This document shows positions 1 through 30,528 of a stretch of DNA of 32,000 nt, in pieces (the first letter of the stretch is position 1; each line of letters opens with the position of its first letter). The translations under genes were made by a program, and so were the position numbers. The notes below the pieces were generated by a model. It made no database searches, had not been told where the DNA came from, and saw only the letters and a program-made list of their open reading frames with translations. Origin of the DNA: Lysobacteraceae bacterium (GTDB lineage Bacteria > Bdellovibrionota > UBA1018 > JAGTJX01); contig JAGTJX010000003.1 of the NCBI GenBank assembly GCA_023657465.1, positions 39,436 to 71,435 of the forward strand, given 5' to 3'.

Positions 1-792
1 CTCGCTTGGGAGAAAATTGGCTTCTCATTCTTCACGACTTCTCATTGGAATCCTGTAAAGCATCAATACGGAGTGGCAGCATTCGCGTGGGCCACACTCG
101 TGACCTCACTCCTAGCACTTCTGATTTCGACTCCACTCTCTCTAGCAGTCGCAGTGAGTGTGACTGAACTCATGAAGAAGCGCGCAGGTCGCGTATTTGG
201 ATTCTTCGTGGATATGCTGGCCGCAATCCCTAGCGTAGTCTACGGACTCTGGGGAATATTCGTACTCGTCCCACTCATGCGCACGCAAGTGCAGCCCTGG
301 TTGTTTGAGAACTTGGGATGGATAGGAATTTTCTCCGAAGTTCCATACGGAGTGGGGATCCTCACTGCATCGATCGTGCTTGCGATCATGATTCTACCCA
401 CGATGAGCTCATTGCTCAGGGAGGTATTCCAAACGATTCCACTCACTCAGAAAGAAGCAGCCCTGGGATTAGGCGCGACGAAGACGGAAATGATTTATCT
501 CTCTGTGGTGAAATCATCTAAGAGCTCGATCGTAGCTGCTATGGTTTTAGGCTTGGCGCGAGCACTGGGCGAAACAATGGCAGTTACTATGGTAATCGGC
601 AATCGTAACGACTGGATGAAGTCGATCTTCTCTCCCGCACAAACTATGGCATCACTCATCGCCAACGAATACGTCGAAGCTACTCATGATCTACACCTCT
701 CTGCATTGGCGCTGGTGGGCGTGACGTTGCTTATGATCTCATCTGTGATTCAACTCGTCTTCCGTGCGATTTATGCCAGAGGGAGGAAATAA
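1..792 (+). CDS. pstC: Phosphate ABC transporter permease PstC (5' end outside window)
   Basis: The frame stays open from nt 1 (LAWEKIGFSFFTTSHWNPVKHQYGVAAFAW...) into the 73..792 ORF. It is a polytopic permease with an EAA-type loop (KEAALGLGATKTEMI). It sits directly upstream of pstA and pstB. Confidence 0.9.
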   Translation, partial: LAWEKIGFSFFTTSHWNPVKHQYGVAAFAWATLVTSLLALLISTPLSLAVAVSVTELMKKRAGRVFGFFVDMLAAIPSVVYGLWGIFVLVPLMRTQVQPWLFENLGWIGIFSEVPYGVGILTASIVLAIMILPTMSSLLREVFQTIPLTQKEAALGLGATKTEMIYLSVVKSSKSSIVAAMVLGLARALGETMAVTMVIGNRNDWMKSIFSPAQTMASLIANEYVEATHDLHLSALALVGVTLLMISSVIQLVFRAIYARGRK

Positions 793-794
793 AA

Positions 795-1637
795 ATGAAA
801 AGTAATTTCCGAAAAACTAAAGATCTATCACTTAAAGTGCTCTATATTATGGGGGTACTCATAGCAATTGCGCCACTCGTTTCTGTGCTCTGGACAGTCG
901 TCCGAGAAGGATATGGAGCACTGACTCCGACATTCTTCACGAATACACCTGCGCCAGTAGGCGAAGTAGGAGGAGGGATTGCGCATGCGATTATAGGAAG
1001 TTTTGTAGTTGTAGGGCTTGCATCAATCGTTGCAATTCCTTGGGGAATTATTCTTGGGATTGCGAGATCTGAGTTTCCTAAGACAATTACTGATAATATT
1101 TTAGGATTCGCGATTGATCTCTTCATGAGTATTCCGACATTATTAATCGGTTTGTTTGCTTATGGACTCATCGTCATGCGGATGAGAACATTCTCTGCTT
1201 GGTCGGGAGCGTTTGCTCTCATGCTCATTATGGTTCCACTCATTACGAAGACGACTGAAGAGATGTTGAAGCAGGTGCCACTCACAGTACGTGAAGCAGG
1301 ATTGGCCTTAGGATTACCGCGTTGGAAAGTGATTCTGCGAATCATTTTGCCGGGATCTATAGGGGCTGTGAGCTCAGGTGTTCTCCTAGCGTTGGCTAGA
1401 ATATCAGGTGAAACCGCTCCCTTGCTGTTTACAGCATTTGGTATGAGGACTTTCTCACAATCACTCTCCGAACCCATTGCAACACTACCCGTTCAAATTT
1501 ATACCTATTCCATCTCGCCTTATGATGAGTGGAGATCACAGAGTTGGGGAGCGGCTCTGGTGTTAGTGATGTTGGCTCTAGTTGTGAATGGGGTGACTCG
1601 AGCATTAATCGGTTCCCGAACCAGAGGTAAAAAATGA
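795..1637 (+). CDS. pstA: Phosphate ABC transporter permease PstA
   Basis: A 280-aa polytopic protein with the motifs [11 protein letters not shown] and [15 protein letters not shown], typical of PstA. It starts 2 nt after the pstC stop and overlaps pstB by 4 nt. Confidence 0.9.
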
Positions 1638-2410
1638 GCGCTGAATTTACACCATCTCCCATCCTTCAAGTTGAGAACGTCAATGCGTACTTCTCAGGTT
1701 TCCATGCGGTGAAGAATATTTCTCTGGCGGTTCCTGAACATCAAGTCACTGCACTTATTGGACCCTCAGGTTGCGGTAAGTCCACATTCATCAGATCACT
1801 CAATCGTCTTCACGAAGAAACTGAAGGTGCTACGCTGACAGGTGAAGTGAGACTAGCTGGAAAAAATATTTATACTCCAGGAGTCGATCCTGTTGAGATC
1901 AGGCGTCAAATCGGAATGGTTTTTCAGAAAGCAAATCCATTCCCAGGCATGTCGATTTATGAAAACGTTGCTGTGGGGCTCACACTCCAAGGTGGATTCT
2001 CAAAAGTCGAAATTGAAAACCGAGTGGAGAAGGCACTTCGTTCATCCGCACTCTGGGATGAAGTGAAAGACAAGTTGAAGAAGCCAGGTACTTCGCTCTC
2101 GGGTGGTCAGAGTCAGCGTCTGTGTATCGCACGTGCTCTTGCAGTGGAGCCTAAGGTGATTCTGATGGATGAGCCGACTTCAGCTCTTGATCCGATTTCT
2201 ACAGCACGCATTGAAGAACTTATTTTTGAACTGAAGAAACAAACCACAGTTGTGATCGTCACGCATAATATGCAGCAGGCAGCGAGGGTTTCAGATTTTA
2301 CAGCGTTCTTCCTCATGGGAGAGCTCATTGAGATGGGGATCACGAAGACGATATTCACTAATCCTAAAGAGCGACAAACTGAACACTACATCACAGGGAG
2401 GTTCGGATGA
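1634..2410 (+). CDS. pstB: Phosphate ABC transporter ATP-binding protein PstB
   Basis: Walker [13 protein letters not shown] signature LSGGQSQRL and Walker [12 protein letters not shown]. Length and N-terminus are PstB-like. Confidence 0.95.
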
Positions 2411-3108
2411 GTACAAATGGAAAGATCCTGATTGTAGAAGATGAATCCGATATTCGTGATCTCATGATGCTTCACTTAACCCGAGCAGGATATGAGTGCC
2501 TGGGGTTTTCTGAAGTCGGTGGATCGTTGGATAATATTAAGACAGGCGATATCTCTCTTGCGATTGTAGATTGGATGTTACCCGATATCAGCGGCTTAGA
2601 ACTCATTCGCCAAATTCGTAGGGTGAAGACTTCAGATGCACTTGGAGTTCTCATGGTCACTGCTAAGGGTGAACCCTCGGATGTGATCTTAGGTCTTGAA
2701 GTAGGAGCTGATGATTATCTTATTAAGCCGTTTGATGTTCAGGTGCTCACAGCTCGTGTTCGGGCACTCATGCGAAGGATTTCTGTTTCGAAGGAAGTGG
2801 CGTCACATCCTAAGTCTATTCTCACGTTGGGAAAACTTTCACTCAACACAGATTCATTCGAAGCGACAATCGACGGCGAGAAGGTGCCTCTGACCAAGAG
2901 CGAGTTCATGCTTCTCCAAGTATTACTAGAGAACCGAGGCAAGGTGCTATCGCGTGAAAAGCTCATGGATTGTATCCAGGGCGAAGGAGTGAACACAGTA
3001 GATCGCGTAATCGATACGCACGTCTTCGGACTGCGCAAGAAAATCGGTGAAGTCGCAGATCAGATTGAAACCGTACGAGGCATTGGTTATCGGGTGAAGT
3101 GGGAATGA
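2407..3108 (+). CDS. phoB: OmpR/PhoB-family response regulator (PhoB-like)
   Basis: Receiver domain ([26 protein letters not shown]) plus a winged-helix C-terminus (TVRGIGYRV). It overlaps pstB by 4 nt. Confidence 0.85.
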
Positions 3109-4235
3109 GTTGGTTAAGTCGCGACTCCTCTCGTGAGAAAATCATTCACACTCTCAAATCCTGGACTCCAGGTGAGCCACTTCCTGTAGCAGAAATTCCT
3201 GAACTAGAAGAATGGTTCAAGCGGATCAATCAAATTGCATTGGGAGAGAAGGATCTCTGGCAGGGCATCTTAAATGCACAGCCTGATCCTGCGTGTTTAC
3301 TAAGCTTAGTAGGTAAAATCGAAGCGAAGAATCATAAATTCAAAGATAAATTCGGAGAAGGCAAGCGCATTGAGGATTCTGTGCGTGATCCAAAGGTTCT
3401 TGAGACTGTAGAAGGCGTACGCAAAGGATCGATAGGCGCTTCATCCAAGATCGAAGTCAAAATTTCTGAGAGATTCTATAAACTACGGGTCTCTCGCCTT
3501 GAGGCGTATGTTTATTGTGTGTTTCAGGATCAGACGGATCTCAAACATGCGATTGAAGACAGATCTCAGTTACTGAGTGATATCGCACACGAGTTACGTA
3601 CACCACTTACAGCCATCTTGGGTTTCAGTCAGACATTGAAGCAAGATCTGAAGACGACGCCGATCGAAGAGTGTGCGTCGTTCATCGAAATCATCGCACG
3701 AAACGCTGAGAGATTAGGGGTTCTGGTTAATGAGTTCTTAGATCTCACCAGGCTCGAATCCAATGCGTTTAAAATCAACCGTGAAGTGGTCGGAGTAGAG
3801 TTACTCTGTGCTCAGGTGCTTGATCAGTTGCGTTTCGCAATCGATGAAAAGATAATCGACCTACGGATCGATCTTCAGGTGAAGTCTCTCTCTGTGGACA
3901 AGGCTCTTTTTGAACGTGCGTTTCGCAATGTGATTGAGAATGCGATTAAGTATTCTCCTCCTAAGAGCAAGATGGAGATTAGATTTAAGGCTACGTCTGG
4001 TGGATTGCGAGTTGAAGTTCAAGATGAAGGTCCAGGGATTGCTAAGGAGTTCCAAGAGCGGATCTTCGATCGCTTCTTCCGTATTGAGACTTCCAGGGCG
4101 CGCGATCAAAAGATCAGTGGATCCGGACTTGGCTTGGCTCTCGTGAAGCGTATCGTGCAAGCTCATGGTGGCACAGTCGGTGTGGAGAGTGAACTTGGTC
4201 AGGGTTCGCTGTTCTGGATTGAGCTTAGGAGCTAG
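3099..4235 (+). CDS. phoR: Sensor histidine kinase (PhoR-like), no predicted transmembrane segment
   Basis: HisKA H-box SDIAHELRTPLTAILGF. HATPase N, G1 and G2 boxes (NAIKYSP, DEGPGI, GSGLGLALV). The N-terminal ~150 aa are hydrophilic and PAS-like. It overlaps phoB by 10 nt. Confidence 0.8.
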   Translation: MGMSWLSRDSSREKIIHTLKSWTPGEPLPVAEIPELEEWFKRINQIALGEKDLWQGILNAQPDPACLLSLVGKIEAKNHKFKDKFGEGKRIEDSVRDPKVLETVEGVRKGSIGASSKIEVKISERFYKLRVSRLEAYVYCVFQDQTDLKHAIEDRSQLLSDIAHELRTPLTAILGFSQTLKQDLKTTPIEECASFIEIIARNAERLGVLVNEFLDLTRLESNAFKINREVVGVELLCAQVLDQLRFAIDEKIIDLRIDLQVKSLSVDKALFERAFRNVIENAIKYSPPKSKMEIRFKATSGGLRVEVQDEGPGIAKEFQERIFDRFFRIETSRARDQKISGSGLGLALVKRIVQAHGGTVGVESELGQGSLFWIELRS

Positions 4236-4412: not shown

Positions 4413-5606
4413 CTATTTAATTTTATTTAAAAACGATTCACGCTGTTCAGGATGAAGCTTCAGTCTCTGCTTCACAGCTTCTGCGAGATCTTCAAGCTCA
4501 GGAATTCCTGTCTTCATTGGCGCGCTTGCGCCACCTGATTTCAAATCACGAATGAGCTGATCTCGCTCAAGGAGTTGTTTCTGAAGAGACTGGATTTTAG
4601 ATTCGCTGCCTTTTGCGACGGGTGTATCTCCCATGTGAAGGAGCGTGATCTCAGGAAGTGAGCGATAACCGCTCTCAGTTTTAGAAATAAGAAGAGGCTC
4701 TTCTGCAAGAAGTTCTGAACCCACAGGTTCAAGCCAGATCGCACGAACGATAGGTGCAGTCATTCGCTCAGAAGGTTTAGTGCTCATGAAGATGAGTGTG
4801 ATCTCAAGTTGGTGAGGGGTAGATGACCACTGAACCCGCATGAAATCTGAGTACCTGGAAGCCGTACGTATTGGTGAGAGACCAGACTTAGTCTTAAGCC
4901 AGAAGGACTGAATGGTTTCATTATGTGGTGGAGTTGCAAGGTGAGTTCCGACTCTCACGACTGCTGTCTCAGAATCACAGGCGAAGTGGACGAAGGGGTT
5001 GCCAGATTTGCTCACTTCTGTAGAGAAAAGAAAATCCTTCACGCCATCAATTGCAGTTGCGATTGCGTGTCTGCGTTCTTTCCAAGGTCCTGCAAACTCT
5101 TGAAGCTCAAACCAACCCTCAGTCATGAGTGAGGTGTGTTCCTTGCCATTCCATTCATAGAAGTAGATGGGGGTTCCTGCGCGGAGTAGCGGCTTGATCC
5201 CTGTGCGAGTCTTGGGGGTGATCAGTGCAGAGATGAGATTTAAATTCTCAAGAGGAGTGTACTTCGTGAGATCGAATAAATAAAATCTTGGATAATCCGG
5301 AAGATCTGGAATGTTCTTGGGATCGATGACTTCTACTGAATATGCAGCGACTGTGGGTCCAGTGTCACGTGTGAGGCCGTAATACCCTTCGACCTTCTTC
5401 CAAGCAAGATACTTGTACCAAGGGAGCATGACGAGTGCGAACTTGCCCTTCTCCATGAGCTCGACTACAGATTCTTGAGAAAGTGTGCCGTCTATGGTTT
5501 GAACATCGATCGTGGGTTTCAGTGTAGCAATGACCTTAGCGACCGTCTTCGCTGATTCTCCGTCAAGCCTTTCGTCTAGTACCCAGGCGATGATTGGGCG
5601 TTTCAT
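4413..5606 (-). CDS. Hypothetical protein (397 aa), translationally coupled to metG
   Basis: Long ORF with an ATGA overlap onto the metG stop. No motif recognised. The C-terminal ~60 aa look coiled-coil-like (KIQSLQKQLLERDQLIRDLK). Confidence 0.7.
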   Translation of the reverse strand: MKRPIIAWVLDERLDGESAKTVAKVIATLKPTIDVQTIDGTLSQESVVELMEKGKFALVMLPWYKYLAWKKVEGYYGLTRDTGPTVAAYSVEVIDPKNIPDLPDYPRFYLFDLTKYTPLENLNLISALITPKTRTGIKPLLRAGTPIYFYEWNGKEHTSLMTEGWFELQEFAGPWKERRHAIATAIDGVKDFLFSTEVSKSGNPFVHFACDSETAVVRVGTHLATPPHNETIQSFWLKTKSGLSPIRTASRYSDFMRVQWSSTPHQLEITLIFMSTKPSERMTAPIVRAIWLEPVGSELLAEEPLLISKTESGYRSLPEITLLHMGDTPVAKGSESKIQSLQKQLLERDQLIRDLKSGGASAPMKTGIPELEDLAEAVKQRLKLHPEQRESFLNKIK

Positions 5607-7159
5607 GCTTCAGCTTTCGGAAGTTCAACACGCATGAAGAGCGGAGCTTCGTTTGCAATCACGGTTCCTGGTTTGAGCGCCAAAAACTTTGAAGCTTCTG
5701 ACCAAGCACCGCTTGTACCACCTAGGCGCTTGAGTAATTCTTCGCACTTCGTAGGCATCACAGGAGTGAGGAGGATCGCTGCGATGCGCACACACTCAAG
5801 CGATATAGTGAGAGTTTCACCTGCATGAGGAAGATCAGTCTTAGCCATCTTCCAAGGTTCGCGATCAGCCAAGTACTGATTCGCATTGGTAAGCATATCG
5901 ATCACCACACCTAAAGCTTCTTGTAGTTCGTTCGATGCAAGGTGTGCTTCGAGTTTAGTGTGAGTGGAAAGTGCTACAGCTTTCAGGGCTTCAGACTTCT
6001 CAGAGAGTTTCTCTACGACTGGAAGCTGGCCGCCAAAGTACTTCGCAATCAGGCTGCAAGTACGACTGAGAAGATTACCGAAGTTATTGGAGAGTTCACT
6101 GTTCACCCTATTAATCACAAGTTCGATTGAGAATTGAGAATCATTGCCGAGACGAACATCTCTGGAGAGGAAGTATCTGAGAGCATCCACTCCGATGATG
6201 TTTTTCACATCGAGAGGCTTCACGACTGTGCCTTTGGACTTAGACATTTTCTCGTTACTTTGGGTCAACCACCAGCCATGAGCATAGATTGTACGTGGAA
6301 GCTCAAGACCTAAGGCCATGAGCATTGTTGGCCAATAGACCGAGTGAGTGGTGAGGATGTCCTTGCCGAGTAAGTGCATGACGGGGCTAGGGGACGCGTT
6401 CCACCACTTCTTGAACTCATCAGTCTTTCCAGATTGTTTGAGTCCCACACCAGTTGCGTAGTTCAAGAGAGCATCAAACCAAACATAGGTGACATAGTCG
6501 CGATCAAACGGAAGTTCAATTCCCCAAGAGAGTCTACTCTTAGGACGAGAGATACAGAGATCGTTCAGTGGCTGGCGTAAGAATCCCAAAACTTCGTTCT
6601 TACGGTATGAAGGCTCAATGAAACCAGGATTCTTTTCAATATGTGAGATCAAGCGCTCTTGATACTTAGACATTTTGAAGAAGTAATTCTTCTCAGTAAT
6701 CTTGGTGACTTCTGTTCCGGTGGGAGCTTTTCCATCCACGAGATCTTTCTCGGTGTAGAATATCTCATCGGCTTGTGCGTACCAGCCTTCGTATTCCTTG
6801 GTGTAGATTTCGCCCGCATCATGGAGTTGGCTTAAACAATCTTGGACAGCCTTCTTGTGAAATGAATCGGTTGTGCGAAAGAAGATGTCGTTACTGATAT
6901 TGAGTTCTTTCCAAATCGCGCGGAAGTTCTCAGCCATCTCATCGCAATGCTTCTTAGGATCGAGTCCTCGCTTCTCAGCTGCGGCCTGAACTTTCTGTCC
7001 ATGCTCGTCGACACCCGTGAGAAACAGAGTCGGAACACCCATGAGCCTGTGATAGCGAGCTAGCACGTCTGCCACGACAGTGCAGTACGCATGTCCAATA
7101 TGTGGGATGTCGTTCACGTAGTAGATCGGGGTGGTGATGTAGAAGGGTGCCTTGCTCAT
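5603..7159 (-). CDS. metG: Methionine--tRNA ligase
   Basis: HIGH motif (PHIGHAY), KMSKS motif and the class-I Rossmann N-terminus FYITTPIYYVN. Start is placed at MSKAPFY (ATG 7159) by analogy with the short N-termini of this MetRS type. An upstream GTG at 7225 (GTGA overlap with the preceding gene) is an alternative start. Confidence 0.93.
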   Translation of the reverse strand: MSKAPFYITTPIYYVNDIPHIGHAYCTVVADVLARYHRLMGVPTLFLTGVDEHGQKVQAAAEKRGLDPKKHCDEMAENFRAIWKELNISNDIFFRTTDSFHKKAVQDCLSQLHDAGEIYTKEYEGWYAQADEIFYTEKDLVDGKAPTGTEVTKITEKNYFFKMSKYQERLISHIEKNPGFIEPSYRKNEVLGFLRQPLNDLCISRPKSRLSWGIELPFDRDYVTYVWFDALLNYATGVGLKQSGKTDEFKKWWNASPSPVMHLLGKDILTTHSVYWPTMLMALGLELPRTIYAHGWWLTQSNEKMSKSKGTVVKPLDVKNIIGVDALRYFLSRDVRLGNDSQFSIELVINRVNSELSNNFGNLLSRTCSLIAKYFGGQLPVVEKLSEKSEALKAVALSTHTKLEAHLASNELQEALGVVIDMLTNANQYLADREPWKMAKTDLPHAGETLTISLECVRIAAILLTPVMPTKCEELLKRLGGTSGAWSEASKFLALKPGTVIANEAPLFMRVELPKAEA

Positions 7160-7221
7160 GTCAGAACAGGTTATCACAAAGGGAGCACAGCGCGAAATAG
7201 CATTGCTATTCCCCAAAGGGC

Positions 7222-8283
7222 TCACTCGTGAGCTGTAAAGGAGCTCTGGCCGTATACGAAATAATAGATTTCGCTCACAATGACTTTAAGCGCTGTAGCA
7301 ATCGGAATCGAAATGAGCATTCCGATGAGTCCGTAATATTCCTGACCGATCATGACGACACCAATCAGAAGGAGCGGGTGCAGGTTCACAAGTTTCGCAA
7401 CAAGTAATGGGAAAATCAGTACAGTATCGACGACGTTAGCGATGAGATAGATCGCAACCACTGGCCACAGTAAGTGCTGATACTCAGGTGCGGCTGCGAC
7501 GATAAGAATTCCTGGGATTGCGCCGAAGAGTGGACCCACGTAAGGAACGATGTTCGTCACTCCTGCAATGCCCGCTAGCACTAATGCATAAGGCGCATCT
7601 ATGATTCCTAAGCCTACAGCGGTGATGATACCTACGAGGAGTGCCTCTACAAGTTTTGCACGGATGTAATCGCTAAGCGATGCCGTGATTTGGTGAGAGA
7701 CCATGAAGGTCGTCTCGAAGAAACGATTGGGTACCAATTCATAGAAGCGCTTACGGAATCTGCGGCCGTCTTTCAGTAACACGAAGCTAATAATAGGAAC
7801 TAAGAAGAGGAGAGTGAGTATGTTGCCTAGCATTCCAGCGCCATGTGAAAGGAACCAGCCTGTGGTTTTGTCTTTGAATACCTTAAGAGAGTCTGCAATC
7901 TGAACGCTCTTAAGAAACGGATACTGATCCTTCCATCCTTGTTCGTAAGTTTCTAAACGCTTCAGTGTACTATCGAAGTACTGAGGAGCAGACACAGAGA
8001 ATTCATCCCACTGAGAAATAAGGGATACTGAGCCCAAGTAAGCTCCCATACCTAATCCACTCACAAGTAATATATAGATCACAGTGAGTGCGCTCGATCT
8101 GGAATATCCCTTACGCTCAACTGCAGAGACGACAGGGGTCAGAAGAATTGAGAAAACAATAGAGAGAAGTACGGCAGTACCTAAGCTCGGTGTTTGTGCA
8201 AGTAGCACAAACGTCAGCACTGTCATCGCTAGGATGAACAGGATTTTGAAAACGTCGCTTTTACTTATTCCTGAGTTTTTCAT
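7222..8283 (-). CDS. AI-2E family (UPF0118/PerM-like) transporter
   Basis: A 353-aa polytopic protein with the family-typical segment GIAGVTNIVPYVGPLFGAIPGILIVA. Confidence 0.8.
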   Translation of the reverse strand: MKNSGISKSDVFKILFILAMTVLTFVLLAQTPSLGTAVLLSIVFSILLTPVVSAVERKGYSRSSALTVIYILLVSGLGMGAYLGSVSLISQWDEFSVSAPQYFDSTLKRLETYEQGWKDQYPFLKSVQIADSLKVFKDKTTGWFLSHGAGMLGNILTLLFLVPIISFVLLKDGRRFRKRFYELVPNRFFETTFMVSHQITASLSDYIRAKLVEALLVGIITAVGLGIIDAPYALVLAGIAGVTNIVPYVGPLFGAIPGILIVAAAPEYQHLLWPVVAIYLIANVVDTVLIFPLLVAKLVNLHPLLLIGVVMIGQEYYGLIGMLISIPIATALKVIVSEIYYFVYGQSSFTAHE

Positions 8284-15754: not shown

Positions 15755-16636
15755 ATGGCATGGTTCGACGATCTTAAAACACCACGTGTTCAAAAGCAGG
15801 ATACGACCTCAAAAACTTCCCGTGTGCCAGAAGGCGCATGGAGCAAGTGTAATGAGTGTGGAGAGATCCAGCATTCCCGTATTTTAAGCTCAAATTTCAA
15901 TGTTTGTCCAATCTGTCAGGCCCATGGAAGGCTCACAGCTTGGGAGCGAATTAAGCTCATGACCGACGAGGGAGCGTCTGACTTCAAAGAATACGGTGCA
16001 AGCTTGATCTCAAAAGACCCACTCGAATTCGATGACACCGTTCCCTATAGGGTCAGATTAGAGAAATCCATCGGCCGTTTTAACCAAAATGACGCGATCA
16101 TTGCAGGCAAAGCTAAGATCAACAAAATTCCCTACCATCTAGCCGTGTTTGACTTCCAGTTTATGGGGGGCAGCATGGGTGTCGTCGTAGGAGAAAAAGT
16201 AGCCATGACCATGGCAGGCGCGCTTAAGGATCAAATCCCTGCAGTCATCGTCTGCGCATCAGGTGGAGCACGCATGCAAGAAGGTGTTTATTCACTTCTT
16301 CAGATGGCGAAGACTTCCTCTTTAGTGAGTCAGCTTAAGAAAAAAGGTATTCCCATGATCACACTTCTCACGAATCCCACAACGGGTGGCGTGGCAGCGT
16401 CGTTTGCGATGCAAGCAGATGTGATCTTAGCTGAGCCTAAGGCACTCATTGGGTTTGCAGGCCCCAGAGTGATCGAACAAACCATCAGACAGAAACTTCC
16501 TGAAGGTTTCCAGCGTAGTGAGTTCCTCCTCATCCATGGATTCGTCGATCGCATCGTGCACCGTAAGAATCTCAAGAAAGAATTATCAGACCTTCTTTGG
16601 CGTCTGGGAATGAGAACGTGCCGGTTCGGAAAATAA
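15755..16636 (+). CDS. accD: Acetyl-CoA carboxylase carboxyltransferase beta subunit
   Basis: N-terminal zinc ribbon CNECGEIQ...CPICQAHGRL, then the carboxyltransferase core FQFMGGSMG and GGARMQEG. Confidence 0.95.
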   Translation: MAWFDDLKTPRVQKQDTTSKTSRVPEGAWSKCNECGEIQHSRILSSNFNVCPICQAHGRLTAWERIKLMTDEGASDFKEYGASLISKDPLEFDDTVPYRVRLEKSIGRFNQNDAIIAGKAKINKIPYHLAVFDFQFMGGSMGVVVGEKVAMTMAGALKDQIPAVIVCASGGARMQEGVYSLLQMAKTSSLVSQLKKKGIPMITLLTNPTTGGVAASFAMQADVILAEPKALIGFAGPRVIEQTIRQKLPEGFQRSEFLLIHGFVDRIVHRKNLKKELSDLLWRLGMRTCRFGK

Positions 16637-18948
16637 AGTTTTTCCTCATATTCAATTTGTTGTTTGCGGTCAGTAGTTTCGCACAAACATCGCTGCATTG
16701 GTCGGGTAAGAAAACTCGTTGGGACCGAAAAAACAATATTGTCGAACTCTTCGAGAAAGCCCAAGTCTCTCGATCAAACGAAATCATCACCGCCAATTAT
16801 ATCAAGTTTAACACAGAGACTTACGATCTCGATGCCGTAGGCCAATGCGTGTATGTGATGCCGGATATGGTCGTGCGCGCTGAGGAGCTTCACTTCAATC
16901 TCAATACGAGATTAGGTCAGATGATCCGAGGCAAGATCACCAATGGTCAATTCTCACTTCAAGGAAATCTCATCACTAGGACGGGCGGGGACAGCTTCAT
17001 AGCAGAGACCGCGGAGTATACCACTTGCCAAGATTGCGCAAGTGCATGGTCTCTCCTCTCAAACGAAATCCGAGTTCAAATCAATGGCTACGCGAGTATG
17101 TCGACGGTTTATTTTAAGATCAAAGATAATCCCATCTTTTGGTTTCCATATTTGATTCTACCGATCAAAAACAAACGTGAGAGCGGAGTACTCATGCCGA
17201 AGACCAGGCTTGCGACTCCGAATGGGTCTGAGATTATTCTTCCGCTTTATTGGGCGATTAATTCGTTTTCTGACATGACGTTAGGTATCGGAACTTACAC
17301 TTCCAGAGGACTAAGACTCGAGTGGGAAGGAAGATACACACTCACAGATAAGAGTGGTGCTCAAATTAATTTTTTTTATAACGATTGGAAGTTTGCGGAT
17401 ATAGATGCAGATAAGCCAGTCATGCGTGGACTTTTGAGCTCGAGATGGGCAGCGTCGATGAATCAAACACAAGTGCTGCCTTGGGGAATTACTCAAAAAC
17501 TCCAGCTGCGAGAGGTGAGTGATAATTATGTTCCGGATTTTTATCTGCCAGATATTCCTAGGAATGCTAATCCTTATCTCTCCAGTGAGCTCTCACTCTC
17601 TAAATCTTCTTCAGACTTCAGCGGATTCATAGAGTTCAAACGAACGAGAAACATGATCTTAGAATCGTCGAAGGATCTAAGAACGTTTGATGATCGTACG
17701 GTGCAGCTTGCACCTAGGATCGTTCTCTCGACAAATGATCAGAGTATTGTTGGTACACCCCTTGTGACTGGATTTTTGGTCGGTTTTAATCAGTACACTC
17801 GTCCGATTGGATTTTTTGATAAAGATCCTGAAGTCATAGGCTCAGACCCGAACACATTTGTTTCCACCGCAACTCAGGTGGATCCGATTCGAAAAGCAAT
17901 TCGAGTGAACTTCCAGCCTTCGATTTATACAACGTTAAGACCGATCAATGGGGTCTCGCTCATTCCATCAGCTCAGTATCGCTATAATGTTTATCACTTT
18001 GGAAATTCCGTCGACAGCCTGGGTCGTGGATATCCACTCTTAAGAGCAGAGCTCTCTTTCCAGCTCGAACGCACGTTTGACACTAAGAATCCTCTTTCCC
18101 CTAGGGTCAAACACTTGATGAGGCCACTCCTTACATATAATTATATTCCTAGTGTTCAACAGCCAGATACGCATCCCTTCGTAAGGCAAATAGAGCGAAG
18201 TCCATCTTATGTTTTTGATAACAACGACTTGATTCCGTTTAATGTGACAAGAAACTTTCAAAGTTTCCAGATACCCCTTGGTAATTCTCTTACCTATGGA
18301 TTCGTCACTCAGGTCATTAGACGAAATGGGCACTTAGATTTGACTACTGCAACCTATGAAAAATTGTTCGAATTCTCAGCCACTCAAAATATTAATTTTT
18401 TACAACTTTCTCAGTCTGTGTCTAACCGCATTCCTCTTTCACGACTTCAATCAAATTTATTTTTTGGATCAGGTCCTTGGGGATGGGGAACAGACTATCA
18501 ATGGATTCCAGACATCGAGAAGTATGGGAGGCCATGGTCAGATTCATTCATGGTGAACTCGAGCTTCTCATACACACTTGTGGGAACAAGATCAGGGATG
18601 AGTGTGTTCAATCGATCGATCAGTATCGGCGCTTCTTACAATCCAGGTTTTTATAATCCTGGCGGTCCTCCCACAGTAGCGCTCACCACAGGGCTCAGGT
18701 ACTCGATCAGTGATTATATTATGCCTTCGATAGTGCTAGCCTACGACCTGACGAATAGAGTTTGGATCTCTCAGAATTTCAATCTCACTCTTCAAGATGC
18801 GTCACAATGTTGGCAGCTCTCATCTGGGTTCGTGAGAAATAACCAAGGTGCTTTTGGATTCTCATTCGATATTAAAATCAATCTCACGGGGTCTGGCTTC
18901 GGAAACATCACCGATGCAGCTAGTTATGTTGCTCCACCTAACAGTTAG
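16618..18948 (+). CDS. lptD: LPS-assembly outer membrane protein LptD (OstA family)
   Basis: An OstA-like N-terminal domain and the family block YTTCQ....W.L....I......G......YFKIKDNPIFWFPYLILPIKNKRESGVLMP, with a large beta-barrel C-terminus. The GTG at 16618 gives signal peptide (M)PVRKIKFFLIFNLLFAVSSFA/Q. The TTG at 16597 is an alternative start. Confidence 0.85.
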   Translation: MPVRKIKFFLIFNLLFAVSSFAQTSLHWSGKKTRWDRKNNIVELFEKAQVSRSNEIITANYIKFNTETYDLDAVGQCVYVMPDMVVRAEELHFNLNTRLGQMIRGKITNGQFSLQGNLITRTGGDSFIAETAEYTTCQDCASAWSLLSNEIRVQINGYASMSTVYFKIKDNPIFWFPYLILPIKNKRESGVLMPKTRLATPNGSEIILPLYWAINSFSDMTLGIGTYTSRGLRLEWEGRYTLTDKSGAQINFFYNDWKFADIDADKPVMRGLLSSRWAASMNQTQVLPWGITQKLQLREVSDNYVPDFYLPDIPRNANPYLSSELSLSKSSSDFSGFIEFKRTRNMILESSKDLRTFDDRTVQLAPRIVLSTNDQSIVGTPLVTGFLVGFNQYTRPIGFFDKDPEVIGSDPNTFVSTATQVDPIRKAIRVNFQPSIYTTLRPINGVSLIPSAQYRYNVYHFGNSVDSLGRGYPLLRAELSFQLERTFDTKNPLSPRVKHLMRPLLTYNYIPSVQQPDTHPFVRQIERSPSYVFDNNDLIPFNVTRNFQSFQIPLGNSLTYGFVTQVIRRNGHLDLTTATYEKLFEFSATQNINFLQLSQSVSNRIPLSRLQSNLFFGSGPWGWGTDYQWIPDIEKYGRPWSDSFMVNSSFSYTLVGTRSGMSVFNRSISIGASYNPGFYNPGGPPTVALTTGLRYSISDYIMPSIVLAYDLTNRVWISQNFNLTLQDASQCWQLSSGFVRNNQGAFGFSFDIKINLTGSGFGNITDAASYVAPPNS

Positions 18949-26486: not shown

Positions 26487-27725
26487 GTGGTTAGTCCTAA
26501 TTGCTGTCAAGCTCTATCAATCATCAATCAGCACTATTTGCGGCCACAATCTGATTCTACTTCTCTGATATCTAAGCTCTGGGACTTCTGGCTATTAGGT
26601 GGTGCAAGCATTGTTTTTTGGGTGTTTATGATAACCCTTAAGCAACTCAAGGAATTTTCAGAACCATTGGAGAAACACTTCGTAGGTCTTGCTCCTGTTT
26701 TTGCCCTCTTACTGGTTTTCTGTAATTACCCGCACTTCATGATGTCCTATAAGTTTGCTTACGGGCAGGGGACGAAGTTTGTTTGGAAGAACTGGATCAG
26801 TCTCGTTGCTGTTCCTGTACTCCTGGCTGCGAGTTTTGGATTGGCATTCTTCCTATTCGAAACAGAGATCGATGCGTTTCAGTCTGTTGGGTTCATCAAT
26901 CTAGTCACAGATAAGGTGGGCTTGGACTTTCGTCTAGGTTCGCTGAAGAACTTAGGTACAGAGATACTCAGTTTCTCAGTGCTTCTCATGTTTCTTCTCG
27001 TGGGATGGCATTACTCCAAGCAAGTCTTCGGTTGTGTGATTCTCTACTCTCGCTATGAGAAGTATCCTCTCTCTCAGTTGCAAAGAAATTTAATCAAGTG
27101 GAGTTTGCTTTCTGTTGCTGTGTTTAATTTTCTTTATCTTTCAATCTATTCTCCTCAGTACAATTCTACTTCTGTTCCTAAGACTTATTTTCTGAATATT
27201 CCTTCTGTGCCTCTGGGATTACCAGGATGGTTTATTCCACTCAGTGAATTGATCGTTGGAGTACTCACAGTTGCAAGTGCTTACTTGATTTTCTATAGGA
27301 ACTACAAAAATAAAAAAATATTACCTAGCCTTAATCTCATCACGCCTTGGATCGCGTTTTATATCTGGTGGATTCCGGTTTCAAGTTTAGGTGAGTATTA
27401 TTTTCTTGCTGTGCCATTCTTCCATTCACTTCAGTATTTGGCTTTTGCATACAGAAGAGATGTTTCGCGTGCTCAGAATATGAAGAAGTTCAATTTTACT
27501 ATGTCAGTGAGAGTCGTGCTGCTTCTGTTTATGGGGCTTATAACGTTTGAGCTTCTACCTAGTTTCTTAGATTCCTACTCCGAGAGTTACTGGAATTTTA
27601 GGACGTGGTTCTTCATGATTTCGATTCCGGTATTCATTAATATTCATCATTACTTCATAGATAGTGTGACGTGGAAGTTTGAATCCAAAGAGGTGAGTGA
27701 GAGTTTATTAAAAAATTGGAGGTGA
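26487..27725 (+). CDS. Polytopic membrane protein of unknown function (start uncertain)
   Basis: About 10 hydrophobic segments. Histidine-containing motifs PFFHSLQYLAFAYRR and NIHHYFIDSVTWKF. No family recognised. Only 53 bp separate it from the divergent gene, so the start may be further downstream. Confidence 0.7.
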   Translation: MVSPNCCQALSIINQHYLRPQSDSTSLISKLWDFWLLGGASIVFWVFMITLKQLKEFSEPLEKHFVGLAPVFALLLVFCNYPHFMMSYKFAYGQGTKFVWKNWISLVAVPVLLAASFGLAFFLFETEIDAFQSVGFINLVTDKVGLDFRLGSLKNLGTEILSFSVLLMFLLVGWHYSKQVFGCVILYSRYEKYPLSQLQRNLIKWSLLSVAVFNFLYLSIYSPQYNSTSVPKTYFLNIPSVPLGLPGWFIPLSELIVGVLTVASAYLIFYRNYKNKKILPSLNLITPWIAFYIWWIPVSSLGEYYFLAVPFFHSLQYLAFAYRRDVSRAQNMKKFNFTMSVRVVLLLFMGLITFELLPSFLDSYSESYWNFRTWFFMISIPVFINIHHYFIDSVTWKFESKEVSESLLKNWR

Positions 27726-27792
27726 CGCCCGGACTCGAACCGGGAGATAACGGTTTTGCAAACCGTTCCCTTAGCCATTTGGGTACGTCACC
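27717..27792 (-). tRNA. tRNA-Cys (GCA), CCA encoded
   Basis: Minus strand reads GGTGACG-TA-CCCA-AATGGCTA-AGGG-A-ACGGT-TTGCAAA-ACCGT-TATCT-CCCGG-TTCGAGT-CCGGG-CGTCACC-T-CCA. This is a full 76-nt cloverleaf with anticodon GCA, discriminator U73 and an A13:A22 mismatch, as is typical of tRNA-Cys. Confidence 0.93.
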
Positions 27793-27927: not shown

Positions 27928-28311
27928 ATGGAAAAGCAGGATCTCAAGCCTCTTTTTGTTTTGGTCAGGCTATTCTTCGTACGAGAGAGTTCGCGCCGTC
28001 TTCAAAGCAAGGGGATTCTGTTTTATTTGAAGGCATTAAGAGCATTACGTGGTGGCGTTCAAGGCTCACTCATCGTGTTTCACTTCTTGCAGACTATTAT
28101 GCTTTCGTTTTTGTGTGCAGTCACTGCAGAAGTATTCCTTGCAGTGGAGGATCAACACACACGCTTACTCATGCTGCTTGGTTTTTTTAGTTTTCTTTTT
28201 GTGATCCCATTCATTGGAGTCGCAGCACTCTTCTCAGAAAAGCTTTGGTACAGAGCTAGCGGAGCAGAGAAGATGGTTGAAGAATTCACCCTCTCGAAAT
28301 CTACTCACTAA
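27928..28311 (+). CDS. Small membrane protein, unknown function
   Basis: The ATG at 27928 (MEKQDLKPLF...) is preferred over the TTG at 27898. There are two or three hydrophobic segments. The stop overlaps the convergent queE stop. Confidence 0.55.
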   Translation: MEKQDLKPLFVLVRLFFVRESSRRLQSKGILFYLKALRALRGGVQGSLIVFHFLQTIMLSFLCAVTAEVFLAVEDQHTRLLMLLGFFSFLFVIPFIGVAALFSEKLWYRASGAEKMVEEFTLSKSTH

Positions 28312-28985
28312 ACCCCTGTGACGTCAGAGCCCCAAATTGCTTTATGAAGCTGGGTCTGAAGTCTTACAGACAACTTATCTTCAATGATCTTCTCAGCTAA
28401 CCACTTGAGCTCTACTCCCGGGAATTTTCCAGGCGCCATCTTTGCAGGCTGTACAGGGGAGAAGAGTGTGAGAAGCGAATTTGGATAATCAGTTGAACTG
28501 ATCACGTCACGCGCCCAGAAGTAATCATTCTGAGAGGCAATGACGAATTTGATTTCGTCTGAAGGTTTGAGAAATTTAAAATTATTCACGAATTCACCAC
28601 GAGACATCGCACTTGATGGAGTCTTGATATCCATAATGACTCTTGCGAAGGGTGCAATAGCTTCTATTGAGACTTCACCGTGAGTTTCGATGCTAACGGC
28701 ATAGCCTTGGCTTACAAGTGCACGTGCAAGCTCTTTGGTATTGCGCTGAAGGAGTGGCTCTCCACCCGTGAGGAGTACGTGCTTCGTTTCATGAGGCTTG
28801 ACCGTATCAAGGATCTCTGGAATCGACATGCGTTTTCCACCATGAAACGCATAAGCCGAATCACAGTAAGTGCATCTGAGATTGCATCCTGTGAGTCTAA
28901 TAAAACTGAAGCGTTCCCCAGTAAGCGAAGTCTCACCTTGTAGGGAGTGGAAGATTTCAGTGATTTGGAGATCAGGAAACGCCAT
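28308..28985 (-). CDS. queE: 7-carboxy-7-deazaguanine synthase QueE (radical SAM)
   Basis: EIFHSLQGETSLTGERFSFIRLTGCNLRCTYCDS contains the QueE N-terminal motif plus the CxxxCxxC radical-SAM cluster. Length 225 aa. Confidence 0.92.
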   Translation of the reverse strand: MAFPDLQITEIFHSLQGETSLTGERFSFIRLTGCNLRCTYCDSAYAFHGGKRMSIPEILDTVKPHETKHVLLTGGEPLLQRNTKELARALVSQGYAVSIETHGEVSIEAIAPFARVIMDIKTPSSAMSRGEFVNNFKFLKPSDEIKFVIASQNDYFWARDVISSTDYPNSLLTLFSPVQPAKMAPGKFPGVELKWLAEKIIEDKLSVRLQTQLHKAIWGSDVTGV

Positions 28986-29105: not shown

Positions 29106-29150
29106 AAAAATGGTGAAGGCGGGAAACCCATCCAGAGATTCCCGCCTTCT
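29106..29150 (-). terminator. Intrinsic terminator / expression-platform hairpin of the riboswitch transcript
   Basis: On the minus strand, GAAGGCGGGAA (29149-29139) pairs perfectly over 11 bp with TTCCCGCCTTC (29125-29115). A 13-nt loop separates them, and ACCATTTTT follows. Confidence 0.7.
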
Positions 29151-29206
29151 TGAGATTGAAGAGGTCGCGCACCGAAGTACGGACCCGCCTTTGAACTTTT
29201 TGTCTT

Positions 29207-29308
29207 CCTTTGGCAACCCGGCTGACATGAAGTGGTAGGGGTAGACCACCTTTTAGTCCCGTTGGCTTTGCGTGCACAGGCTTTCACCTGGCTTGCCTTT
29301 TTCAAAGG
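29207..29308 (-). promoter_or_regulatory. c-di-GMP-I (GEMM-I) riboswitch aptamer
   Basis: Minus strand reads CCUUUGAAAAAGGCAAGCCAGGUGAAAGCCUGUGCACGCAAAGCCAACGGGACUAAAAGGUGGUCUACCCCUACCACUUCAUGUCAGCCGGGUUGCCAAAGG. P1 is CCUUUG/CAAAGG. It has the GGCAAxCC + GAAA-tetraloop hairpin, the invariant ACGCAAAGCC, CUAAA plus a second hairpin (GGUGGU/ACCACU), and the 3' block CAGCCGGGUUGCC. These occur in the same order as in the Vibrio Vc2 aptamer as I recall it. Confidence 0.8.
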
Positions 29309-29394
29309 GGTAGAATCAATCCTGATTCTGCCTCTCCAGACGTCCCCCGACCGTGGGAAACGTAATCTTTTTGCAAATCTTTCCTTAACTAATG

Positions 29395-29423
29395 ATTTTA
29401 TGCCTAACGCATAGCGGTGTCAA
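29395..29423 (-). promoter_or_regulatory. Near-consensus sigma70 promoter driving the riboswitch RNA
   Basis: On the minus strand, TTGACA (29423-29418), then a 17-nt spacer, then TAAAAT (29400-29395). The predicted TSS is about 29388, 80 nt upstream of the aptamer. Confidence 0.55.
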
Positions 29424-29487: not shown

Positions 29488-30528
29488 GTGTCTAACCTGT
29501 CGATATTATTATCTATTTTAGGTGCTTTAGCGGATCAGTCGCCGCAACTTGGTGTAGATATTCATGATTATCATTTGAAGTCGACAGCGGGAATCACTAT
29601 CCTTAATCATTACGGAGCAATCGAGGTTCAGGGATGGTCATTAGATAAAGTACGCGTGGAAGTGAAGAAGTCTACGAATGGGAATCTCAGTTTTGAGGTC
29701 GATCAATCTGAAAACAAGTTCGAGATTAGAACGACCGCAGGCAAAAACCAGTTTCTAGCTGAAAAAATCAAAACCAGATCCAAGCTCCCTGAAGGTGGAA
29801 TCGATCTCTTAGTGCGAGCACCTGCTCACGTGCCGCTCACCCTTCTTTCTAAGAATTCTAAAATCGTTTTAAAAGGTTGGGGTGCACTCACAGAGATTAG
29901 CGCTAGTCATGGTGATATCAAGATTGAGAACATCACATCTCCTGTGACGAGAATCGCTTGCCCAGATTGCAAAATCCGCATCGGAGATGCCAAGGGAACC
30001 ATTAAAATTTCAGGTGGCAAAGGAAACATTGATCTCAAGCAAATCGAATCGCAGGATCTCTTCATAGAATCCACCTCAGGAATAGTGAATCTAGAGCAAG
30101 TCTCTGGATCTGGAATTCTCGTCACTGACTCAGGCCAAATGAGAGCCAAGAAACTTGAAGGTCAGTACGCGTTCAAATCCAGATCTGCAGAAGTGCTGCT
30201 CACAGAAACCAAAGGTTCTATTCATGGTGAGTCTCGCTCTGGCAATATTCATATTGAAGTGAAGGAGTGGACTTCATTAGATAAACAACTCATCAGCAGT
30301 GAGGAAGGTTCCATTCACGTCTCACTTCCTCCTAGTTTTTCAGGAGAAATAGAAGCGGTTTCTCAAATGGGGAAACTCAATATGGACTTTCCACTCACGA
30401 AAACAGTTGCAAAGAAAATCTATGGACCTGAACCCATGAATCACTACATGGGTAAAGCGGGTCGTGGTGGAGAGCTTTTAAGTATCCAATCGACTAAAGG
30501 GAATATATGGCTGCTTCAAGCAATCTAA
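29488..30528 (+). CDS. DUF4097-like repetitive beta-strand ('toast-rack'/putative adhesin) protein
   Basis: Repeated ~20-aa units carry (S/H)G(D/N/S)I..... patterns: HGDIKIENI, KGTIKISGGKGNIDLK, TSGIVNLEQVSGSGILV, SRSGNIHIEV, EGSIHVSL, TKGNIWL. GTG start with a hydrophobic N-terminus. Confidence 0.7.
   Translation: MSNLSILLSILGALADQSPQLGVDIHDYHLKSTAGITILNHYGAIEVQGWSLDKVRVEVKKSTNGNLSFEVDQSENKFEIRTTAGKNQFLAEKIKTRSKLPEGGIDLLVRAPAHVPLTLLSKNSKIVLKGWGALTEISASHGDIKIENITSPVTRIACPDCKIRIGDAKGTIKISGGKGNIDLKQIESQDLFIESTSGIVNLEQVSGSGILVTDSGQMRAKKLEGQYAFKSRSAEVLLTETKGSIHGESRSGNIHIEVKEWTSLDKQLISSEEGSIHVSLPPSFSGEIEAVSQMGKLNMDFPLTKTVAKKIYGPEPMNHYMGKAGRGGELLSIQSTKGNIWLLQAI

Follow-up and report, generated by a model that had tools for sequence, protein, structure and literature searches.

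The window analysed here, a 32,000-nucleotide (nt) stretch of contig JAGTJX010000003.1, carries on its minus strand a compact RNA unit built around an aptamer of the cyclic di-GMP (c-di-GMP) riboswitch family c-di-GMP-I, also called GEMM-I. The unit is flanked by a divergent DUF4097 gene upstream and by a queE-like gene downstream, of which it is probably the transcribed leader. A sequence-only reading had described it as a promoter, a riboswitch and a terminator hidden under spurious open reading frames (ORFs), and had left undecided whether it gates queE or forms a stand-alone RNA. Its elements and flanking genes, given in the order in which the minus strand is read, are the following (the class referred to comprises the related loci described below):

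29488..30528, plus strand: DUF4097 (toastrack) gene (Pfam match), the divergent upstream neighbour, conserved across the class
29395..29423, minus strand: sigma-70-type promoter TTGACA-17-TAAAAT, an 11/12 consensus match with a predicted start near 29388
29341..29362, minus strand: hp0, a 5' leader hairpin (CGUUUCCC/GGGGGACG) of the minimum free energy (MFE) fold, with an equivalent hairpin of other sequence in every class member
29331..29338, minus strand: strand a (UGGAGAGG), 5' strand of the long-range helix P0, paired with 29164-29157 in the MFE fold
29312..29329, minus strand: hairpin b (AGAAUCA-GGAU-UGAUUCU), an arm of the four-way junction present in the fold, with a hairpin of variable sequence at this position in all class members
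29301..29310, minus strand: strand c (CCCCUUUGAA), the P1 5' strand plus a C-run, common to P1 and the alternative helix P1'
29207..29308, minus strand: c-di-GMP-I (GEMM-I) aptamer including P1 (CCUUUG/CAAAGG), with a GAAA tetraloop, a receptor-type P3 and canonical binding-site residues
29184..29195, minus strand: anti-P1 strand f (UUCAAAGGCGGG), which pairs with strand c as P1' and contains a second CAAAGG
29163..29185, minus strand: hairpin g (GGUC...GACC with a UUCG loop), an arm of the four-way junction present in the fold; in the class GGUCC...GGACC with a variable insert
29157..29164, minus strand: strand h (CCUCUUCA), the P0 3' strand, seen in the MFE fold, with RNAalifold and in the pair-count test
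29106..29149, minus strand: intrinsic-terminator-like hairpin (GAAGGCGGGAA.../...UUCCCGCCUUC) followed by ACCA and UUUUU, with an 11-bp GC-rich stem at 29149-29115 and the U run at 29110-29106
29082-29064 and 29031-29013, minus strand: a palindrome, TTGCAC-N5-GTGCAA, that occurs twice within the 120 nt separating the terminator from queE
28308..28985, minus strand: queE-like radical-SAM gene (7-carboxy-7-deazaguanine synthase family), conserved downstream of the unit across the class

The riboswitch unit and its relatives

Two relatives of the unit were found via the DUF4097 protein (L001 and L002, 75% and 72% identical, respectively), and in both of them conservation with the window runs from the -35 box to the terminator and ends there, the terminator stem being kept by compensatory changes. 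A metagenome pattern that included the junction between aptamer and platform proved too strict and gave no matches; a scan that used the aptamer sequence only (CTTTGAAAAAGGCA-N60-90-TGCCAAAGG) returned 32 loci, of which five were chance matches, one (L024) was a GEMM-I aptamer on another platform and 26 had the extended architecture of the window. Retrieval based on QueE, in which the RNA was ignored, yielded three loci with the same extended unit (L036, from a Bdellovibrionales metagenome-assembled genome (MAG), L039 and L040). The extended architecture is present in 31 distinct loci, the window included. From 5' to 3', the shared order is hp0, strand a ((U)GAAGAGG), hairpin b, strand c (CCCCC-CUUUGAA) and the aptamer, followed by a linker that often holds a hairpin, strand f (UUCAAAGGGGGG), hairpin g (GGUCC...GGACC), strand h (CCUCUUCA) and, 5-14 nt past strand h, a GC-rich terminator with a U run. 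Across the class, strand f is the exact complement of c and strand h the complement of a. The L024 aptamer (L024:1423-1524) has the P1 and the joining sequence of the class on a different platform, with no queE or DUF4097 gene nearby and a GC content of 37%.

The aptamer itself, previously recognised from its conserved sequence blocks and a CCUUUG/CAAAGG P1, is borne out by the Rfam covariance model RF01051, which matched 29307-29209 over its full length (model positions 1-87 of 87) at 61.1 bits, against a gathering score of 35 (E = 8.5e-10); class relatives score 61-82 bits on the same model. When RNAalifold was applied to 29 class sequences, all helices of the three-helix-junction aptamer were recovered, P1 among them, with 6-16 compensatory sequences per pair in the variable stems. 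The binding-site stretches of the window (AAAAAGGCAAG, CACGCAAAGCC and GUUGCCAAAGG) align to upper-case consensus positions of RF01051 and are invariant in the class. We take the ligand contacts to be the G before the GC pair (Vc2 G20), the A in ACGCAAAGC (A47) and the C in UGCC (C92). In the window and in all class members, the nucleotide that precedes the GC pair (GGCAA) is G, not A, so that the specificity position, which had been singled out as the means of telling c-di-GMP from 3'3'-cGAMP, reads as in GEMM-I aptamers of the c-di-GMP type and not as the A of GEMM-Ib. Since the canonical G (GGCAA), A (ACGCAAAGC) and C (UGCC) are all present and a permissive Rfam scan (E up to 10; the window and three class members) placed no other RNA family on the platform, we infer that c-di-GMP would be the expected ligand of the class. 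The same scan dealt with the idea of a second aptamer or a known small RNA (sRNA) within the platform, for which Rfam offered nothing.

A further family, c-di-GMP-I-GGC (RF03167), has a consensus very similar to the class outside the binding site (cgaaAAAGGCAAACC...UGCcgaag), and differs from it in its defining G (ACGCGAAGC / GACGCGAAGC), a position at which the window and all class members have A (the RF03167 consensus GACGCGAAgCc has G at the first A, where the window, L014 and L036 read A in ACGCAAAGC). Despite this canonical A, the units of L014 (5618-5712) and L036 (2769-2866) pass the RF03167 gathering score, slightly above their RF01051 score, which suggests that the RF03167 family and the present class share a common lineage and that RF03167 was probably drawn from the same lineage or class.

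Class members resemble GEMM-I riboswitches of RF01051, such as Vibrio cholerae Vc2, in their fold, in the motifs GGCAA, GAAA tetraloop, ACGCAAAGC, CUAA/AUG receptor and AGCCGGG-UGCC, in P1, in their position in a 5' leader and in the intrinsic-terminator-like hairpin downstream. Unlike standard GEMM-I riboswitches, the class has its aptamer nested in a sequence-conserved four-way-junction platform (P0, b, P1' and g), an anti-P1 strand that stays clear of the terminator, queE as its downstream gene and ACCCC as its P3 terminal loop. This loop (about 29241-29237 in the window) keeps the sequence ACCCC throughout the class, although the Rfam consensus has a variable loop there; a pseudoknot between this invariant loop and the G-run of strand f is possible. 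The unit is a new conserved Bdellovibrionota variant of the c-di-GMP-I family, defined by its four-way-junction platform and its association with queE.

Upstream of the aptamer, the promoter that had been read from the sequence (29423-29395) matches the sigma-70 consensus at 11 of 12 positions. A lone site of this kind is not significant, since 2.4 such sites are expected by chance in the region; in L001 and L002, the -35 box is invariant, the -10 box is kept in position and the distance to the aptamer is the same 83-87 nt. Across the class, a site resembling a promoter precedes the unit at 15 of 26 loci. Both leader hairpins that had been pointed out (29362-29341 and 29329-29312) are in the MFE fold, and compensatory changes keep both of them in L001 and L002. 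The loop of hp0 contains a GGA motif in most class members (ACGGAAU, AAGGAUU or AUGGAUA; e.g., L010, L017, L022 and L030) that recalls CsrA-type binding sites, and the window's loop, ACGGUC (29354-29349), is without GGA. A 289-nt RNA starting at about 29388 folds better than 200 of 200 shuffles (z = -2.85). The transcript, anticipated at about 280 nt, comes to about 283 nt and would end 120 nt before queE. As for the ORFs that overlap the RNA region, the sequence-only reading was right to call them spurious, none having a Pfam match even at E = 1, and miscounted them: there are five of at least 40 amino acids (aa), with lengths of 49-94 aa, rather than four.

Position of the unit upstream of queE

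A queE gene lies downstream of the unit and on the same strand in 26 of the 29 informative loci (two contigs end too early), a count made up of 23 loci in which tblastn with the window's proteins placed the start of queE 125-245 nt past the aptamer, plus L001, L036 and L039. In the queE-linked loci the DUF4097 gene stands divergently upstream wherever the contig allows, and the linkage held despite identities of 55-73% for QueE and 24-32% for DUF4097 and contig GC contents of 37-63%; the synteny is deep, given how little of the DUF4097 sequence has been kept. An early reading based on L001 and L002 alone, in which the downstream gene is not conserved, had pointed to a stand-alone RNA and was reversed by the wider sample of loci. 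On the question that the sequence-only reading had left open, the comparative data therefore favour control of queE (26/29 loci), and the stand-alone alternative survives as an analogy.

A median of 39 nt (range 13-120) separates the last nucleotide of the U run from the start codon of queE, and the window has the longest distance, 120 nt. An independent queE promoter in this spacer was considered and rejected, as a sigma-70-like site between the platform and the queE start was found in 0 of 23 loci and in the window there is none; in the class, transcription of queE would therefore have to pass through the riboswitch and the terminator. Strand h was also considered as an anti-Shine-Dalgarno element and set aside, most queE start regions of the class being without a Shine-Dalgarno sequence. 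The two palindromes in the window's spacer are 51 nt apart, centre to centre, and as RNA they form one hairpin (-31.6 kcal/mol) that ends about 27 nt before the queE start. Their motif occurs nowhere else in the window, which argues against a repeated element, and is absent from the related loci; they form a window-specific insertion, which may consist of paired operators or represent a small inserted element.

The best NCBIfam match of the window's QueE is TIGR04349 (239.5 bits, E = 2.8e-71, below the 300-bit cut-off) and its Pfam match is Radical_SAM. The usual RNA regulators of que genes are preQ1 riboswitches. Like the unit described here, those of classes I-III occupy the 5' leader of a queuosine-pathway gene; the unit differs from them in having an unrelated aptamer and, as its signal, a second messenger instead of a pathway intermediate, and the preQ1 riboswitch family had no match on the platform even at a permissive Rfam threshold. 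The remark that a link between c-di-GMP riboswitches and queE was not known as described stands, in that none was found in the searchable literature, which excluded the 2017 paper defining the GGC variant.

The nearest named relatives of the window's methionyl-tRNA synthetase (MetRS) and QueE are Bdellovibrionales, Bdellovibrionia and Oligoflexia MAGs at about 60-65% identity, and the GC content is about 45%. Because these affinities and the GC content conflict with it, the NCBI label of the source MAG, "Xanthomonadaceae bacterium", looks wrong, and the host looks like a poorly sampled member of the Bdellovibrionota. Among species-representative genomes, an exact search with 35 nt of the aptamer gave zero matches and a search with the DUF4097 alignment gave only an unrelated match in Ginsengibacter, the lineage being absent there. 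The MetRS gene lies at 5603-7225 of the window, and further housekeeping genes (73-4235 and 16597-18948) include a phosphate cluster from pstC-pstA to a PhoR/PnpS-like gene, AccD and an LptD-like gene. Just downstream of queE is a tRNA gene (27720-27792, minus strand) whose anticodon loop, UUUGCAAAA, is read as Cys-GCA; a tRNA also adjoins queE in L001, L016, L036 and L037. tRNA-Cys is no substrate for queuosine.

Platform helices and predicted switching

In the MFE fold of the window, strand c pairs with strand f and not with the aptamer's own 3' strand. The second CAAAGG at 29193-29188, to which the sequence-only reading had drawn attention as a duplicate of the P1 3' strand, is real, is the most important extra feature of the unit and belongs to this conserved anti-P1 strand; the C(UUCG)G-capped hairpin at 29185-29163 is likewise present in the fold. 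Summarised over the class, P0 takes the form UGAAGAGG/CCUCUUCA and the anti-P1 strand the form UUCAAAGGGGG. Helix P0 (strands a and h) was predicted by RNAalifold from the 29 sequences without a hint, with one broken cell of 203. In a pair-count test on a 28-sequence alignment, 97.3% of its cells were paired, as compared with 58-67% when the partner was slid, and compensatory changes were seen at four of its eight pairs, a level reached by 0 of 500 shuffles; the clearest compensations are GAGGAAG/CUUUCUC in L033 and GAAAAGG/CCUUUUC in L039. P1' (strands c and f) is mostly conserved in sequence, with 90.3% of its cells paired and one compensatory pair. An alignment-free duplex search identified f as the best partner of c, with a median of -18.8 kcal/mol for P1' versus -7.0 kcal/mol for P1; at 17 of 29 loci, the observed P1' energy was not reached by any of 200 shuffles.

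The terminator (29149-29106) is found in the fold with its 11-bp GC-rich stem and U run as described earlier, and it covaries across the class, the stems showing 8-13 compensatory changes per pair in the RNAalifold analysis; a simple terminator scan overlooked it on account of the 4-nt gap between the stem and the U run. Class terminators have a conserved spacer of 3-4 nt (GCC or ACC(A)) before the U run (29114-29106 in the window), an atypical arrangement that may be leaky, and in the window, L001, L002 and L036 a mini-hairpin results from pairing of this spacer with G-rich sequence past the U run. The duplicate of the terminator 5' arm, AAGGCGGG, is present as had been stated and could pair with the terminator 3' arm. 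It is confined to the window, L001 and, in part, L002, so that the role in an expression platform proposed for it would be clade-specific at best.

Switching was examined by constrained folding of the 29 loci with P1 either forced or forbidden, the outcome being a thermodynamic prediction. The two states differ by a median of 2.7 kcal/mol, a gap that, at about this size, would be well within what ligand binding can supply. With P1 forbidden, c and f pair, P0 has a probability of 0.97 and a near-perfect four-way junction (P0, b, P1' and g) is formed; with P1 enforced, f is released and the probability of P0 falls to 0.43. In this model the conserved switch is P1 versus P1' plus P0. A classical anti-terminator was sought by pairing the terminator arms with strands a, e, f and h, and was abandoned, the complementarity being weak and non-conserved and the terminator being unaffected in ensemble calculations. 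As the conserved competitor of P1 closes a four-way junction and has no overlap with the terminator, the coupling mechanism is non-standard or the output is something other than termination.

We favour, as probable rather than certain, a reading in which a canonical c-di-GMP-I riboswitch serves as the transcribed leader of queE in a conserved Bdellovibrionota class and acts in cis as an attenuator. Of this reading, the data directly support the aptamer and the promoter, the two helices (P0 and P1'), the hairpin of the terminator, the conserved association with queE and the absence of a promoter-like site for queE alone. Transcription would start at the strong promoter near 29388. The P1 5' strand (CCCCUUUGAA) could then pair with the aptamer 3' strand, giving P1 and the ligand-competent form, or alternatively with the downstream anti-P1 strand (UUCAAAGGCGGG), giving P1'; in the latter case P1', hairpins b and g and P0 (UGGAGAGG/CCUCUUCA) would close the four-way junction, the presumed default fold of the ligand-free RNA. 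Binding of c-di-GMP would lock P1, eject the anti-P1 strand and loosen P0. The GC-rich terminator, 7 nt past P0, is expected to end most transcripts and yield the RNA of about 283 nt, with queE expressed from read-through only, and the fraction that reads through would change with ligand binding, by a coupling that could be kinetic. We lean slightly towards more read-through when c-di-GMP is bound, since the open form is predicted to free strands beside the terminator; in the window's clade, one of these freed strands is identical to the terminator 5' arm.

Competing interpretations and implications

Several observations weigh against the view of the unit as a cis-acting attenuator of queE. 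The terminator has a predicted probability of about 0.96-1.0 whether P1 is forced or forbidden, so that its formation is not mutually exclusive with either aptamer state in this prediction, and strands a, c, f and h hardly vary between genomes that have diverged widely, a constancy beyond what base pairing needs. In the window itself P1' is weaker than in the class (-12.6 kcal/mol, with a bulged C) and its energy was reached by 17 of 200 shuffles. The junction with queE is also unstable in the window's clade: the window has the 120-nt palindromic insert, L039 has a spacer of 320 nt, and in L001 a gene is inserted between unit and queE (L001:4873-5550, minus strand; an ORF of 225 aa that lacks a Pfam match and whose N-terminus, MKTLSIALALTLSLTQAHA, resembles a signal peptide), on which the riboswitch of that genome would act first. 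Three intact units have no queE downstream. L002 is followed by a convergent radical-SAM gene and its terminator is without a U run, yet the unit reaches 63.8 bits and has kept every helix. L014 and L032 have another setting in common, in which a GT2 gene diverges from the unit on the upstream side and the genes on the downstream side are convergent and unrelated. L037, which comes from the same sample as L002, and L041 carry queE genes with 86% identity between the two, both in the same new surroundings and lacking a riboswitch; in the L002 lineage, queE and the unit would therefore have parted before L037 and L041 diverged. If L002 and L037 belong to one genome, as their shared sample leads us to infer, the L002 unit appears to have stayed intact after an old loss of its linkage to queE. 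Finally, the assignment of queE itself depends on family similarity under the NCBIfam cut-off of TIGR04349.

These orphans, together with the unstable junction, the near-consensus promoter and the state-independent terminator, are the reason for keeping a second interpretation, possible though clearly less probable than attenuation of queE, in which the unit makes a stand-alone or dual RNA analogous to merRNA. The functional product would then be the transcript of about 283 nt itself, which could buffer c-di-GMP or be gated by the ligand, its four-way junction opening so that conserved strands become accessible to a partner (protein or RNA), and the position of queE would be secondary or a matter of leak-through. 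Such a role would fit a terminator that is predicted in either aptamer state with P0 opening on ligand binding, a promoter of 11/12 match that is unusually strong for an enzyme like QueE, the intact units of L002, L014 and L032 before convergent genes, the age of the split in the L002 lineage, the near invariance of strands a, c, f and h, and a window that combines the longest spacer with the extra -31.6 kcal/mol hairpin before queE. It fits poorly with the 26 of 29 informative loci that keep queE just downstream without a promoter-like site of its own; the orphans are only three and could be recent or regulate something unrecognised, and the union of L002 and L037 in one genome rests on their shared sample. 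Riboswitch-derived trans-acting RNAs such as SreA and EutX/Rli55 have a function of their own. As terminated riboswitch transcripts or riboswitch-containing sRNAs, Listeria SreA and Enterococcus/Listeria EutX/Rli55, which are cited in PMC3627812, offer a model for this interpretation and for the orphan copies, by analogy only.

Shared descent with merRNA itself is a different matter. merRNA of B. bacteriovorus HD100, reported to be expressed massively and specifically in the attack phase, is known from a 445-nt sequence between Bd1131 (ilvE) and Bd1134 (mrp) (Karunker et al. 2013, PMC3627812). It resembles the unit in coming from the same phylum and in combining a GEMM-I aptamer, whose P1 is CCUUUG/CAAAGG, with a promoter of its own and a distant terminator about 100 nt further on, and it resembles the orphan class members in having no downstream gene. 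It differs in its leader (about 235 nt, from the sequence in PMC3627812, versus about 80 nt in the window unit), its locus (ilvE-mrp, not DUF4097-queE), its flanking genes and its lack of the P0 and P1' elements (UGAAGAGG/CCUCUUCA and UUCAAAGGGGG). A blastn comparison (word size 7) of the unit with the 445-nt sequence gave matches of 7-10 nt only, of which the longest (9-10 nt) lie in the core motifs of the aptamer and the other short ones are at chance level (E 0.65-7.9). On account of the leader, the missing platform elements and the blastn result, orthology was rejected; it is now very improbable and effectively refuted, and the earlier suggestion of a merRNA-like RNA fails if meant as homology, there being no similarity outside the aptamer motifs. 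The absence of a conserved downstream ORF that characterises merRNA is not a property of the class and is found only in the orphans L002, L014 and L032. The comparison with merRNA holds as an analogy only.

Other ligands deserve somewhat more credit than orthology with merRNA and are still improbable. The unit might respond to 3'3'-cGAMP, as Geobacter GEMM-Ib does, or to the ligand of c-di-GMP-I-GGC, or the platform might be a second aptamer, for instance for a 7-deazaguanine precursor. The platform is conserved in sequence, two class members exceed the RF03167 threshold, and queE is a classic target of preQ1 riboswitches. Production of cGAMP by B. bacteriovorus through Bd0367 (PMC9140294) also fits a response to that nucleotide. 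What speaks against all of these is the G instead of A before the GC pair (GGCAA) and the A instead of G in ACGCAAAGC, in the window and all class members, along with the permissive scan, which covered the platform of the window and of three class members and found no other family. Least credible of all, and effectively refuted, is the notion that the overlapping ORFs are real small-protein genes and the RNA features incidental. Five ORFs of 49-94 aa do overlap the region, and in L001 automatic gene calling gave an 88-aa ORF that runs antisense to the aptamer; against this, no ORF matches Pfam even at E = 1, conservation follows the RNA helices with compensatory changes and ends at the terminator, and the covariance-model match has E = 8.5e-10.

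Attenuation of queE and a function of the short RNA could also be combined, although we regard this as unlikely, a shade more so than the stand-alone or dual RNA set out above. In such a two-output RNA, c-di-GMP would open the P0/P1' junction of an abundant, constitutively terminated transcript of about 283 nt and lay bare strands that hardly vary; the transcript would act in trans or as a buffer, at the same time as read-through coupled c-di-GMP to 7-deazaguanine (queuosine) synthesis, and this would explain why intact copies persist after the loss of queE. If true, predatory Bdellovibrionota would possess a second, independent and much more widespread counterpart of merRNA. Whether riboswitch RNAs can turn into stand-alone RNAs that bind c-di-GMP is a question that dates from the description of merRNA in 2013, and the orphan units offer a natural test case for it. 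If, as we favour, c-di-GMP controls queE, a lifestyle second messenger would be wired to the 7-deazaguanine precursor of tRNA queuosine across a predatory phylum, and codon-biased translation may be part of the switch between attack and growth.

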